A stretch of DNA of 47,148 bases from Candidatus Methylomirabilis sp. (GTDB lineage Bacteria; Methylomirabilota; Methylomirabilia; Methylomirabilales; JACPAU01): assembly GCA_036000645.1 (NCBI GenBank), contig DASYVA010000062.1, positions 1 to 47,148 on the forward strand, in the 5' to 3' direction. A program made the position numbers and the translations under genes. Positions 32,839 to 45,766 of this stretch are shown in pieces. The stretch's first letter is position 1, and each line of letters starts with the position of its first letter. Under the pieces are notes generated by a model. It searched no databases, was not told the origin of the DNA, and saw nothing but the letters and a program-made list of their open reading frames with translations.

Positions 32839-33738
32839 TCACCGGAAAAACACCTCCCGCTCCCCGCTCCGGAGGCTTACCTTCAGGCGCTCCTCTTCGC
32901 GACGGATCGTGAGGGTCACCTGCTCCCCCGCGCGGTACTTCCACAGCTCCTCGTAGAGGTCGCGGCGGCCGCTCACACTGCAGAACCCGACCTCCCGGAT
33001 CCGGTCCCCCGGTTTCAGGCCGCCGACCTCCGCGGGTCCGCCGGGGACCAGGCCGGAGATGAGCACCTCCCCCTCGTCGCCCCGCACGTAGCATCCCAGC
33101 CAGGCGCGGTGCGGCCGGCTGACGATCCCCCCGTGCTCCAGCAGCTCGAGCCGGTGCAGCCGGTAGGCCTCCACGGGGATGGCCAGGCTGGCCTGGCCGA
33201 CCCCCTCCAGGGTCAGCGAGACGCTTCCCACCATCAGGCCCCGGCTGTCGAAGAGGGGCCCGCCGCCGTACCCGGGGTTCTCCGCGGTGGAGACGATGGC
33301 GCGATCCAGCATGTACTCCCACTCCGCGTCGAACTCCCCCAGGTAGGTGACCAACCCCCCGCTCCCCCGCCGCTCAGCCTGGCCGGTGCTCCCCACCGCA
33401 AAGACCGGGTCCCCGAGCGTGAGATCCAGGGACGAGCCCATCCGAAGGGCCAGGAGGCCCGCCTCCTCCACCCGCAGGAGGGCCAGACCGCTGTCGTAGT
33501 CCTGGGCAGCCACGCCCGCCTCGACCGTCCGACCGTCCGTGAGGCCCACGGTGATCTCCTCCGCGCCCAACACCAGGTAATTGACGGTGAGGATATAGCC
33601 GCGGCCATCCACCACGGCCCCGCTTCCCATCCGCTCCTCCCCCAGGATGGGGATCGAGCGGTGTCCTTCCCGGATCCGGACGGCCACGGCGACCGTCCCG
33701 GGGAGGACGTCCTGGATGAGGTCCGGGGGGGCGTCCAT
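32839..33738 (-). CDS. HtrA/DegP-like trypsin-fold + PDZ protein lacking the catalytic triad (paralogue 1)
   Basis: The domain order and blocks match HtrA: GSGAVVD..GYILTVNYLV, DSGLALLRV, AENPGYGGGPLFD, SLAIPV, and the PDZ GLVPGGPAEVGGLKPGDRI. However His->Tyr, Asp->Gly and Ser->Gly. Confidence 0.85.
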   Translation of the reverse strand: MDAPPDLIQDVLPGTVAVAVRIREGHRSIPILGEERMGSGAVVDGRGYILTVNYLVLGAEEITVGLTDGRTVEAGVAAQDYDSGLALLRVEEAGLLALRMGSSLDLTLGDPVFAVGSTGQAERRGSGGLVTYLGEFDAEWEYMLDRAIVSTAENPGYGGGPLFDSRGLMVGSVSLTLEGVGQASLAIPVEAYRLHRLELLEHGGIVSRPHRAWLGCYVRGDEGEVLISGLVPGGPAEVGGLKPGDRIREVGFCSVSGRRDLYEELWKYRAGEQVTLTIRREEERLKVSLRSGEREVFFR

Positions 33739-33753: not shown

Positions 33754-34917
33754 CTACCAGAGACGGGTGGGGGCATGGGTGATGACCTCGGGTCTCCCCT
33801 CCGTCACCAGAATCTCCTGCTCCACGCAGACGCCCCCCAGTTCGGGGACGTAGATTCCCGGCTCGACGCAGAGAGCCATGCCGGGTCGAAGCGGCGTCGC
33901 GACGCCCGGGAGGAGATAGGGCTCCTCGACGGTCTCGAGGCCGATCGCGTGGCCGGCGAAGGGACGGGCGTACCCCCCGAACCCCGCCGCCGCAATCCGG
34001 TCGTGGGCAACGGCCACGAGATGCTCGGCGGGGACGCCGGGCCGGGCAGCCTCCACCGCCGCCGTGGTCGCCTCCAGGCCCGCCTCCAACAGGCGGCGTT
34101 GCTCCGGGGAGACTTCCCCCGCCACCGTCGTCCGGAGGACATCGAACTGGTACCCCTGGCGGGCGCCGATCAGATCCAGCGTCACCATCTCCCCCTGGCC
34201 GATCACCCGATCCGTTGCCTGGGGCCACCGCGAGGTCCAGGTGGCCCACGGGCCCGAGTGGACCCGGAGGTACCGGACGAAGTCTGCGCCGGCCAGCAGT
34301 GCCGCGCCGACCCCCGCCGCGCAGACCTCCCGCTCCGACACGCCGGGCTTCACGGCGCTGACCGCCGCCGCGAGTCCCGCGGCGGCCACGGCCGCCGCCT
34401 GCCGCAGCAGATCCTGCTCGGCCGGACTCTTCACCTGGCGCATCCCGTTCACGATCTCTTCCGCCGGCTCCCAGGTGACGGCGGGGAGGGCGGCCGCCAT
34501 CTCGCGGAACAGGGTCAGCGGGAGGATGTCCGCGCCGGCCAGCCCGATCCGGGCCGTCGCCAACCCCCGCCCCTGCACGACACCGGCGAGGGCCCGGGGA
34601 AGGTCGCTGCTCACCTCCACCGCCTCCACCGCCACGAGGTCCCGCCGGACCGCGGGCCCGTCCGCCACCAGGATGGGGGCTCCCTGCTGCGGGAGGAGCA
34701 ATGCGGCGTGCCCCAGCCCCCGCATCGCCCCGCTCACCACGGCCGTCGGGAACGGGGGAAAGTGATTCGTGAGGTAGGCCAGACTCCCCGGCCGGTCATA
34801 GAAGGCTCGGCCGACCACGAGCAGGGCGGCGAGGCCGCGGGCCGCGCAGGCCCGCCGCGCCTCCTCCTGCCGGGCCGCGAACTCCTCCGGGGGGATCCCC
34901 AGCGCCTCGGCGCTCAT
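33754..34917 (-). CDS. M24 family metallopeptidase (Xaa-Pro dipeptidase / creatinase-like)
   Basis: ATG 34917 follows GGAGGGAGG. The metal ligand blocks are VTLDLIGARQGYQFDVLRT, GHAIGLE, LCVEPGIY and VCVEQEI. Confidence 0.9.
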   Translation of the reverse strand: MSAEALGIPPEEFAARQEEARRACAARGLAALLVVGRAFYDRPGSLAYLTNHFPPFPTAVVSGAMRGLGHAALLLPQQGAPILVADGPAVRRDLVAVEAVEVSSDLPRALAGVVQGRGLATARIGLAGADILPLTLFREMAAALPAVTWEPAEEIVNGMRQVKSPAEQDLLRQAAAVAAAGLAAAVSAVKPGVSEREVCAAGVGAALLAGADFVRYLRVHSGPWATWTSRWPQATDRVIGQGEMVTLDLIGARQGYQFDVLRTTVAGEVSPEQRRLLEAGLEATTAAVEAARPGVPAEHLVAVAHDRIAAAGFGGYARPFAGHAIGLETVEEPYLLPGVATPLRPGMALCVEPGIYVPELGGVCVEQEILVTEGRPEVITHAPTRLW

Positions 34918-44184: not shown

Positions 44185-45081
44185 CTAGCGGTAGAACGCC
44201 GCCCGGTCGCCGGCCGTCACCTCGATGGCCTTCGGGGTTCCCCCCCGCAGCAGGCTGAGGAGGACCGGTTCCCCCGGGCGGTGCTTCCACAGTTCGGTGT
44301 AGAATTCCCGGCGGCTGGTCAGGCGGACCACATCGAGGCCGATGAGGAGATCTCCTTCCCGCACGCCGGCCCGGGCGGCGGGGGAGTCCGGGATGACCCC
44401 GACCACCTGCACCCCGCCGGCCCGTCCCTGGCTGAACAGCCCGAGCCACGCCCGGGGAGGGCGGCTCAGGATCCTCCCGTGCCGGAGGAGCTCCTCCCGG
44501 TGGTCGCGGTACAGGTCCACGGGAATCGCCAGCGAGGCCCGGGCCACCTCCGCGAGATTCAGGGAGACCACGCCCAGCATCCGCCCCCTCAGGTCGCACA
44601 GGGCGCCCCCGCCGAAACCGGGGTTCGCGGCATTCGCCTTGAGCGCCCGATCCAGCATGTACTCCCAGGCCGCGTCGAAGGGGCCTACCTCAATCAGATG
44701 GCCCCCCCGGACCCGCCGGGCCGTGGGGGCGGTGCTGGCGAGGAGGAAAACCGGTTGCCCCGGTGCCGCTGCTGCCGCTTCCCCCAGGGGGGCGGGCGGG
44801 CCGAGGCCCCGGGGGACCTTCACGAGCGCGAGCCCGCTGTCGAAATCCCGCGCCACCACCTCTCCAGTTGCCTGGCGGCCGTGCGGCCCGGTGACGGTGA
44901 CGCCAGCGGCCCCGAGGGTGACGGAGTTCACCGTGAGGACCAGGTCCGCCTCGACCAGCGTCCCCGAGCCCATCCGCTCCGTCCCGAGGGGAACGACGGA
45001 GGGGTGGCTCGCCGGGACGGTCACCTCGAGGTGCACGCTCGACGGGACAACCTGCTGCGCCAACTGAGGAGCCGCATCCAT
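44185..45081 (-). CDS. HtrA/DegP-like trypsin-fold + PDZ protein lacking the catalytic triad (paralogue 2)
   Basis: ATG 45081 follows GGAGGGG. The N-terminus MDAAPQL aligns with MDAPPDL of paralogue 1. LVLTVNSVTLG (His->Ser), DSGLALVKV (Asp->Gly), ANPGFGGGALCD (Ser->Gly). The PDZ is GVIPDSPAARAGVREGDLL. Confidence 0.85.
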   Translation of the reverse strand: MDAAPQLAQQVVPSSVHLEVTVPASHPSVVPLGTERMGSGTLVEADLVLTVNSVTLGAAGVTVTGPHGRQATGEVVARDFDSGLALVKVPRGLGPPAPLGEAAAAAPGQPVFLLASTAPTARRVRGGHLIEVGPFDAAWEYMLDRALKANAANPGFGGGALCDLRGRMLGVVSLNLAEVARASLAIPVDLYRDHREELLRHGRILSRPPRAWLGLFSQGRAGGVQVVGVIPDSPAARAGVREGDLLIGLDVVRLTSRREFYTELWKHRPGEPVLLSLLRGGTPKAIEVTAGDRAAFYR

Positions 45082-45766
45082 GGCCGCTGCCCCTCCGCCC
45101 CGCCGCGCACGACGGGCCCTGGACATCAACACGATCGTCCGGACGTTGAAGCGGGCTGTCCGCGCCTGGGCCCCGCCCGCCGTCGCCCAGGTCCAGGCAG
45201 ATCGCCCCGACCCATTCCGGGTCCTGGTCTCCTGCCTGCTCAGCCTCCGGACTAAGGATGCCGTGACCGAGGCGGCATCCCGGCGCCTCTTCGCCCTGGC
45301 CGACACGCCCGCCGCAATCCTCGCCCTGCCCCGCCGGACCATCGAGCGGACCATCTACCCGGTGTGTTTCTACCGGGTGAAGGCCCGCACCCTCCAGGAG
45401 GTCTCGCGGGATCTCCTGACCCGCTTCGGCGGCAGGGTCCCCGACACCCTGGAAGACCTGCTCACGCTGAAGGGGGTGGGGCGAAAGACGGCCAACCTGG
45501 TGGTGACGGTAGGCTACAACAAGGCTGGCATCTGCGTCGACACCCACGTCCATCGGATCAGCAACCGGTGGGGCTACGTCCGGACGAAAACCCCGGAGGC
45601 GACGGAGGAAGCCCTGCGGGCCACCCTTCCCCGGAGGCACTGGATCTCCTTCAACGACCTCCTCGTCCCCTTCGGCCAGAACTGCTGCAAGCCGATCTCC
45701 CCCCTCTGCAGCCAGTGCCCGGTCGAGGCCCACTGCGCCAAGGTGGGTGTGACCCACCACCGCTAG
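45080..45766 (+). CDS. nth: endonuclease III (DNA glycosylase/AP lyase)
   Basis: ATG 45080 lies 8 nt after GAGGAG. Motifs: the HhH-GPD LKGVGRKTANLV, VDTHV.R, and the 4Fe-4S ligands CKPISPLCSQCPVEAHC. Confidence 0.93.
   Translation: MAAAPPPRRARRALDINTIVRTLKRAVRAWAPPAVAQVQADRPDPFRVLVSCLLSLRTKDAVTEAASRRLFALADTPAAILALPRRTIERTIYPVCFYRVKARTLQEVSRDLLTRFGGRVPDTLEDLLTLKGVGRKTANLVVTVGYNKAGICVDTHVHRISNRWGYVRTKTPEATEEALRATLPRRHWISFNDLLVPFGQNCCKPISPLCSQCPVEAHCAKVGVTHHR

Follow-up and report, generated by a model that had tools for sequence, protein, structure and literature searches.

Two triad-less HtrA-like paralogues of a soil Methylomirabilota bacterium and the wider clade around them

What does an HtrA-like protein do for a cell once all three of its catalytic residues have been replaced? 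The question is raised by a stretch of 47,148 nucleotides (nt) from Candidatus Methylomirabilis sp., a soil bacterium of the NC10/Methylomirabilota (contig DASYVA010000062.1 of assembly GCA_036000645.1; the whole stretch is called the window below). Two genes of the window, encoding the proteins P0001 and P0002, look like HtrA proteases with a PDZ domain and appear to lack the catalytic triad. An earlier note, made from the DNA letters alone, had described them as a duplicated pseudo-protease family kept by purifying selection for a non-proteolytic function. In the analysis reported here both genes were found to be intact and selected, their duplication was found to be old, and the proteins were placed in a large and widely distributed clade of HtrA-like proteins. 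They probably serve as binding proteins of the cytoplasm, a reading that is weighed against several others in the last section.

Two intact HtrA-like proteins and their triad positions

The two genes and the parts of their products that matter for the argument are as follows; residue numbers used in the text are those of P0001 unless P0002 is named.

44185-45081, minus strand: P0001 (paralogue 2), triad-less HtrA-like protein of 298 amino acids (aa) plus stop; open reading frame (ORF), BLASTP, Pfam and AlphaFold2
32839-33738, minus strand: P0002 (paralogue 1), 299 aa plus stop; ORF, BLASTP, Pfam and AlphaFold2
7-13 nt 5' of the P0001 ATG, minus strand: Shine-Dalgarno-like box GGAGGGG
44467-45081, minus strand: P0001 residues 1-205, chymotrypsin-fold protease-like domain; Pfam, AlphaFold2 beta-barrel strands and Foldseek
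44188-44466, minus strand: P0001 residues 206-298, PDZ domain and C-terminal helix, with a conserved tail R..F.R
44923-44925, minus strand: P0001 Ser53, the catalytic-His position; the family consensus is Tyr
44833-44835, minus strand: P0001 Gly83, the catalytic-Asp position
44611-44613, minus strand: P0001 Gly157, the catalytic-Ser position, within the nearly invariant L1 loop NPG[FY]GGG
44659-44667, minus strand: P0001 Trp139-Glu140-Tyr141 (WEY), at the tip of a beta-hairpin equivalent to the HtrA sensor loop L3; a hallmark of the wider clade
44440-44454, minus strand: carboxylate-binding loop RAWLG of the P0001 PDZ domain
44287-44289, minus strand: invariant Trp265 of P0001, on PDZ helix alphaB
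33577-33579, minus strand: P0002 Tyr54, the His position
33487-33489, minus strand: P0002 Gly84, the Asp position
33265-33267, minus strand: P0002 Gly158, the Ser position
33313-33321, minus strand: P0002 WEY

There are no frameshifts or internal stops in either ORF. The G+C content at third codon positions, 0.88 for P0001 and 0.92 for P0002, is at the level expected for genuine genes in this window, whose overall G+C content is 71.7%. In BLASTP the two proteins align over their full length with a single gap and 135 identities in 299 positions (45%, E 5e-84), and the blocks which had been listed as common to both copies are all present in this alignment: MDAAPQL/MDAPPDL, ERMGSG, LTVN, DSGLAL, DA.WEYMLDRA, NPG.GGG, ASLAIPV, RAWLG and ELWK.R.GE.

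The triad positions were placed with phmmer against solved AlgW/DegP-like chains and with a profile of 71 family sequences against the DegP-like chains of the PDB, and both placements agree. TNNHV of HtrA corresponds to TVNSV in P0001 and TVNYL in P0002, ETDLAV corresponds to DSGLAL in both paralogues, and GNSGG corresponds to GFGGG in P0001 and GYGGG in P0002. The triad columns read Ser/Gly/Gly in P0001 and Tyr/Gly/Gly in P0002, in the single-sequence and the profile alignments alike, and no alternative register brings back a triad residue in either paralogue. The earlier note was right that all three positions are non-catalytic in both copies, and the alignments do not restore them; the His-to-Ser change it gave for both applies to P0001, and paralogue 1 has Tyr at this position. 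Because His-Asp-Ser is replaced by Ser or Tyr, Gly and Gly, neither protein, judged by its sequence, can act as a classical serine protease. A relocated catalytic Asp was also considered, two residues before Gly83 in the motif DF[DE]xG. An acidic residue is frequent there, yet other members have A, H, P, R, F or S, so it is not a displaced catalytic Asp.

The Ser at position 53 of P0001 is found in only 2 of the 16 members of its own clade, 13 of which have Tyr, and so it is a recent change from the family Tyr. Two observations on single relatives belong here. Six orthologues of P0002 (P0125-P0130, 87-88% identical) read TVNHV, which puts a His at the catalytic-His column while the Asp and Ser columns are still Gly. 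One member of the paralogue 2 clade, P0009, reads GFSGG, with a Ser at the nucleophile position.

Pfam finds Trypsin_2 in both proteins (E 3e-16 for P0001, residues 38-171, and 9e-19 for P0002), followed by PDZ_2 (E 5e-12 and 3e-10). AlphaFold2, given the family alignment, predicted both structures with high scores: a predicted local distance difference test (pLDDT) of 93.0 and a predicted template-modelling score (pTM) of 0.89 for P0001, and 91.6 and 0.88 for P0002. The best Foldseek matches of these models are DegP, DegQ, MucD, AlgW and DegS, with E-values from 1e-25 to 1e-22. The template-modelling score over the full chain is only about 0.6, a hint that the two domains, although the same, are oriented to each other somewhat differently than in HtrA. 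In the phmmer alignment the PDZ loop RAWLG falls on RGWLG of AlgW.

The proteases HtrA, DegP, DegQ, DegS and AlgW (MEROPS S1C) thus have the same two-domain fold in the same domain order, and their GSG strand, L1 frame NPGxxGG, PDZ carboxylate-binding loop and length of the protease-PDZ1 unit all match P0001 and P0002. Unlike those proteases, the two paralogues have no His-Asp-Ser triad, signal peptide or membrane anchor, and they carry residues specific to their own clade (WEY on L3, Arg36 and Trp265). Their scores are also far below the family cut-offs. The best NCBIfam model, Do/DegP TIGR02037, gives 81 bits for P0001 and 119.8 bits for P0002 against a cut-off of 416.2, and the equivalogs all score far under their cut-offs, so that by these models the two proteins are relatives of HtrA rather than members.

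Hydrophobicity is low at the N-terminus of both proteins. An in-frame stop lies 5 codons 5' of the P0002 ATG, and in P0002 and many relatives such a stop is found 3-8 codons before the conserved MDA start, leaving no room for a signal peptide. Both proteins are predicted to be cytoplasmic and soluble, without export signal or membrane anchor.

Selection, age of the duplication and the wider clade

Purifying selection on the two genes was measured in several ways. By the pairwise NG86 method, the ratio of non-synonymous to synonymous substitution rates (dN/dS) is 0.16-0.25 when P0001 is compared with three orthologues of 80-88% identity (L011-L013), and comparison of P0002 with its orthologue in L091 gives 0.11; YN00 values are lower still. 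In a 97-98% identical strain, seen in contigs of two other runs, the variants in the P0001 gene are 14 synonymous and 5 conservative non-synonymous ones. In the rest of the family 63 columns are conserved to at least 95%; P0001 has the family residue at 60 of them and P0002 at 59. The claim of purifying selection on two diverged, intact, triad-less HtrA/PDZ paralogues is borne out by these results.

The argument that had been made for it is not. Synonymous divergence (dS) between P0001 and P0002 is saturated and each paralogue has its own clade of orthologues at 80-96% identity, so the copies are not recent duplicates. In the trees each of these clades is fully supported on a long stem (0.6 substitutions per site for paralogue 2, 0.45-0.57 for paralogue 1), and the two clades are not sisters. 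A second genome, GCA_022614955.1, has both paralogues about 11 kb apart with the gene order unchanged (12-kb synteny). By these trees and distances the duplication is old and both copies have been maintained. The loss of the triad is placed before the duplication, the shared substitutions being inherited and not independently retained, so it is the dN/dS values, and not the agreement of the copies as such, that speak for selection. Paralogue 2 evolves faster than paralogue 1, and its ligand preference may have shifted.

With each protein as query, hundreds of full-length homologues were found, about 300 aa long and mostly from metagenome-assembled genomes (MAGs) of Methylomirabilota (Rokubacteria, NC10); all these homologues are named only automatically, as 'S1C family serine protease'. 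The distribution of the GxGGG / TVN(Y/S) variant, which had been suggested as a check, is broad: the triad columns are Y/G/G in 213 of 226 close homologues, and a pattern scan with one genome per species found a relative encoded in at least 345 species genomes, mostly Methylomirabilota. Six MAGs of the SMAG series carry labels that do not fit this distribution (L029, L032, L047, L052, L055 and L060, labelled respectively Nitrosotalea, which is an archaeon, Verrucomicrobiia, Dormiibacterota, Limnocylindria, Acidoferrum and Baltobacteraceae). Their family copies fall in the tree among copies from Rokubacteria/Methylomirabilota MAGs, and three of the six (L029, L032 and L047) have a DLH-type upstream neighbour; mis-binned contigs are a possible explanation.

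A profile search for the wider clade covered 1.84 billion representatives. Among the best representatives with all three triad columns, 86 of 124 have Trp-Glu-[Tyr/Phe] on the L3-equivalent hairpin. Of these 86, 82 have Tyr at the His position and 85 have Gly at the Asp position, and the Ser column varies among G, A, S, P, N, D and E. P0254 (TSNHV / DLAL / GYSGG), the nearest representative to have a full triad, is without the Trp. Both P0001 and P0002 carry the Gly that the clade has in place of Asp, the WEY of L3, an Arg ahead of GSG and a Trp on PDZ helix alphaB. The cytoplasmic family of about 300 aa is on this evidence a short, signal-less branch of a wider 'Tyr/Gly/x + WEY' HtrA-like clade. 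The description as a duplicated pseudo-protease family holds for the two paralogues, which are not a small family of one genome but members of the cytoplasmic branch of this wide clade.

Many members of the wider clade are 320-370 aa long and have signal-like N-termini, and they make up a secreted branch, with named examples from Kiloniellales and Burkholderiales. These 'TIGYL / G[FL]GL / WEY' proteins of Proteobacteria and others, again annotated 'S1C family serine protease', share with P0001 and P0002 the Gly for Asp, the WEY of L3, the Arg ahead of GSG and the PDZ Trp, and have Tyr for His, as P0002 does. They differ in the Ser position, which is often S, A or P, and in being without His26-Pro-Ser28. 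At least 600 stretches in metagenome contigs fit two search patterns for the secreted branch; the scan for its loci was built on a 12-sequence subset of the alignment.

Nine residues are at least 85% conserved in both the cytoplasmic and the secreted branch and differ from AlgW: Arg36 before the GSG strand, Tyr53, Gly83, Phe135, Trp139-Glu140-Tyr141 on L3, Trp265 on PDZ helix alphaB and Arg293 in the C-terminal tail. Glu140 is 100% conserved in the 86 wider-clade representatives. The L1 loop NPG[FY]GGG is nearly invariant despite the absent nucleophile. On loop LA, His26 and Ser28 of His26-Pro-Ser28 are invariant in the 71-sequence cytoplasmic alignment and are not conserved in the secreted branch. 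In real HtrA proteins, the elements that carry these hallmarks link the PDZ-bound peptide to the cleft. Aromatic residues make up most of the conserved set, next to one acid and two bases, and such a set seems to suit a fixed binding surface better than a hydrolytic centre.

Neighbouring genes

The genes next to P0001 and P0002 were examined in the window and in related loci. Those closest to the two genes in the window are as follows.

33754-34917, minus strand: M24 (creatinase/prolidase-type) peptidase gene, 15 nt upstream of P0002
43463-44155, minus strand: RraA-like gene, 30 nt downstream of P0001
45080-45766, plus strand: endonuclease III-like (HhH-GPD, nth) gene, divergent from P0001
40331-43466, plus strand: TldD/PmbA-type metallopeptidase pair, convergent with the RraA-like gene

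P0001 and the RraA-like gene are probably co-transcribed. Their adjacency is kept in L011, and in GCA_022614955.1 an inserted pair of an AbiEi-like antitoxin and an AbiEii toxin separates the P0001 orthologue from the RraA-like gene (L010:1077-2707, which equals L092:1016-2646). A link to a defence system was looked for and PADLOC gave no match. On the other side, the P0001 ATG overlaps the first ATG of nth in a CCATGG palindrome (window 45078-45083), which leaves no intergenic promoter region unless nth starts further downstream.

Around P0002 the gene order is M24 peptidase, P0002, Metallophos_2, PIG-L, SDR and MFS transporter. The M24 gene is present in the window and in L091, absent from L092 (L092:11943-11988) and reduced to a 74-aa remnant on the contig of P0127, with the HtrA-like gene intact. 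It appears from these comparisons that the M24 gene is being lost in this lineage, and since it is absent or decayed in relatives it is not an obligate partner of paralogue 1. In related genomes, the TldD/PmbA pair recurs in the block that separates the two HtrA-like paralogues, together with genes for an NMT1-like binding protein, an FAA hydrolase, an ABC exporter and two NUDIX proteins.

The commonest order in 75-76 related loci is DLH/S9-like hydrolase, HtrA-like gene, SDR and BrkB. The DLH/S9-like gene immediately precedes the HtrA-like gene in 30 of 75 loci, often with -17 to +10 nt between the two, and the SDR gene is present in 35 of 76. Some loci have instead a divergent nth gene (8 of 75), a divergent TPR gene (8), a 5-formyltetrahydrofolate cyclo-ligase gene (7) or a response regulator / GAF histidine kinase (4). 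One sub-clade of NC10/Methylomirabilales (L019, L037, L045 and L057) has the HtrA-like gene between genes for a response regulator and a double-GAF histidine kinase, all on one strand, and a link to regulation is possible in that sub-clade.

For the secreted branch, the 113 neighbours at 80 metagenome loci form 89 clusters. An S10 carboxypeptidase gene and an AstE/AspA-type gene lie ahead of two secreted members, and none of 28 same-strand upstream neighbours of the secreted members sampled in the locus scan is a peptidase. A partnership with exopeptidases was considered as a general rule and was given up in view of the 89 clusters, the 0 of 28 and the loss of M24 in close relatives. Docking of the PDZ domain on the C-terminal tail of a neighbour was considered as well, and SDR and DLH tails gave no consistent signal: SDR tails of Rokubacteria end in hydrophobic ...GGL[IV]R[SG][VL][VL], the window SDR ends in ...ATRGVTY, and the DLH-type neighbours have basic C-termini, which suit a PDZ groove badly.

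Candidate roles and known relatives

The reading that we favour, with moderate confidence, is that P0001 and P0002 are non-proteolytic, probably oligomeric proteins derived from HtrA, which bind peptides or other proteins in the cytoplasm by means of their PDZ domain. Both would be intact and selected cytoplasmic proteins with the two-domain HtrA fold, a chymotrypsin-like barrel and one PDZ. Protease-dead DegP still works as a holdase, and by analogy P0001 and P0002 would bind peptides or proteins without catalysis. The PDZ groove, with its RAWLG carboxylate-binding loop, would hold a C-terminal or beta-strand ligand, and the WEY of L3, the PDZ Trp and the Arg of the C-terminal tail, together with the conserved L1 loop of the dead cleft, would form the remaining binding surface. 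The assembly would probably be a trimer, as in other HtrA proteins.

Several points weigh against this reading. The ligand binding and the oligomeric state are what we infer by analogy, and the proposed clustering of WEY, Trp265 and Arg293 is placed from the positions of L3 and the PDZ groove in known HtrA structures. The invariant Glu140, and in the cytoplasmic branch His26 and Ser28, leave room for unrecognised chemistry. With neighbours so scattered, and no peptidase among the 28 of the secreted branch, the family is without a conserved operon partner, and there is none to name a client. Support for transcription is weak: soil runs X9 and X18, labelled 'GENOMIC RNA-Seq', hold 97-98% identical contigs that cover window 44358-45235, most of paralogue 2 and part of nth, and these contigs may be DNA.

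A bolder proposal, which we put forward only tentatively and consider rather unlikely as a whole, takes in the entire clade. The 'Tyr/Gly/x + WEY' proteins would be an old, abundant and overlooked branch of HtrA in which the triad was exchanged for an aromatic-plus-glutamate site between L3, the dead cleft and the PDZ helix, with a new specific ligand-binding or catalytic activity, and the Methylomirabilota proteins would put the HtrA fold to use in the bacterial cytoplasm, this NC10 lineage having two specialised paralogues.

The proteins could instead be regulatory subunits of mixed oligomers, formed by P0001 and P0002 or by either of them and an active protease from another locus, which they would gate or target. 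HtrA proteins do oligomerise through the protease domain, and the two paralogues co-occur with fixed synteny in at least two genomes. We think this unlikely, as no HtrA with a triad is encoded close to the two genes, be it in the window or in the related loci, most family members appear to be single stand-alone genes, and canonical HtrA proteins are exported whereas P0001 and P0002 have no signal.

It is also quite unlikely, in our judgement, that the family is a cryptic enzyme with a rebuilt active site, made of Glu140 with Tyr53/Tyr141, or of the cytoplasmic His26/Ser28 on LA, and hydrolysing peptides or some other substrate. The complete conservation of Glu140 in the wider clade, the invariance of His26 and Ser28 in the cytoplasmic alignment and an L1 loop that hardly varies although its nucleophile is gone are what one would point to. 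But His26 and Ser28 are not kept in the secreted branch and so cannot account for hallmarks found throughout the clade, and what is invariant across the clade is one Glu, one Arg and several aromatic residues, with no obvious pair of nucleophile and base. Paralogue 2 has moreover lost Tyr53 without other decay, and we know of no chymotrypsin-fold hydrolase that uses such a set of residues.

A role as the dedicated adaptor of a neighbouring hydrolase, M24 here and the DLH/S9-like enzyme in Rokubacteria, with the PDZ domain feeding it peptides or docking on its tail, seems improbable. It is suggested by the 15-nt gap between M24 and P0002, by the DLH/S9-like genes, often closely spaced, of 30 related loci and by the S10 carboxypeptidase and AstE/AspA-type genes that precede two secreted members. 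However, M24 is missing or decayed in relatives whose HtrA-like gene is intact, paralogue 2 has no such neighbour, the 28 same-strand upstream neighbours sampled for the secreted members include no peptidase, the neighbours of that branch are spread over many clusters, and the basic C-termini of the DLH-type enzymes would make poor PDZ ligands. That the two are functionless pseudogenes, decaying or recently duplicated, can practically be set aside: the triad is lost, the dN/dS of paralogue 2 is somewhat above that of paralogue 1 (0.16-0.25 against 0.11) and its stem is long, but frames are intact in all orthologues, dN/dS is well under 1, 59-60 of 63 family-invariant positions are kept, the AlphaFold2 folds are confident, and the copies are only 45% identical with saturated dS.

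The favoured reading, HtrA-derived binding proteins, has precedents in other dead HtrA proteins. In magnetotactic bacteria MamO is an HtrA-derived pseudoprotease that was repurposed for metal binding (PMC4794232). Like P0001 and P0002 it has a protease domain of the HtrA family in which the triad is degenerate, and it serves a purpose other than proteolysis. The MamO equivalog NF040961 gives P0002 19.5 bits against a cut-off of 800 and does not match P0001. MamO carries a C-terminal transporter-like domain, whereas P0001 and P0002 consist of Trypsin_2 and one PDZ with no further C-terminal domain in Pfam, and are predicted to be cytoplasmic and soluble. There is no magnetosome gene context either, the neighbours being M24, metallophosphoesterase, PIG-L, RraA-like and nth genes. 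In Campylobacter jejuni the triad-less HtrA homologue PflC is a scaffold of the flagellar medial disk and works by oligomerisation; this periplasmic protein carries two PDZ-like domains, and no part of it is more atrophied than the active-site region (PMC12222027). P0001 and P0002, by comparison, carry a single PDZ and lack an export signal, and L1 and L3, the loops of the cleft, rank among their most conserved parts. MamO and PflC share neither the architecture, the location nor the hallmark residues of this family. The full-text literature searched held nothing on the 'Tyr/Gly/x + WEY' family, only MamO and PflC as precedents, and a cytoplasmic bacterial use of the HtrA fold was not found described in it.

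MamO and PflC are dead HtrA proteins that have been studied, each with an unexpected new job, and the present family is far larger than either, with at least 345 species genomes in its cytoplasmic branch and at least 600 metagenome stretches in its secreted branch. As a description of what these proteins do, the annotation 'S1C family serine protease' is almost certainly wrong. The replacement residues are sharply defined and can be mutated and assayed directly, and the cytoplasmic branch puts an HtrA fold in a compartment where bacterial HtrA proteins are not expected. Methylomirabilota have few cultured members and are important in soil and in methane and nitrogen cycling. Knowing their ligand would put many annotations right and could bring to light a new module of protein quality control or of binding in this phylum.

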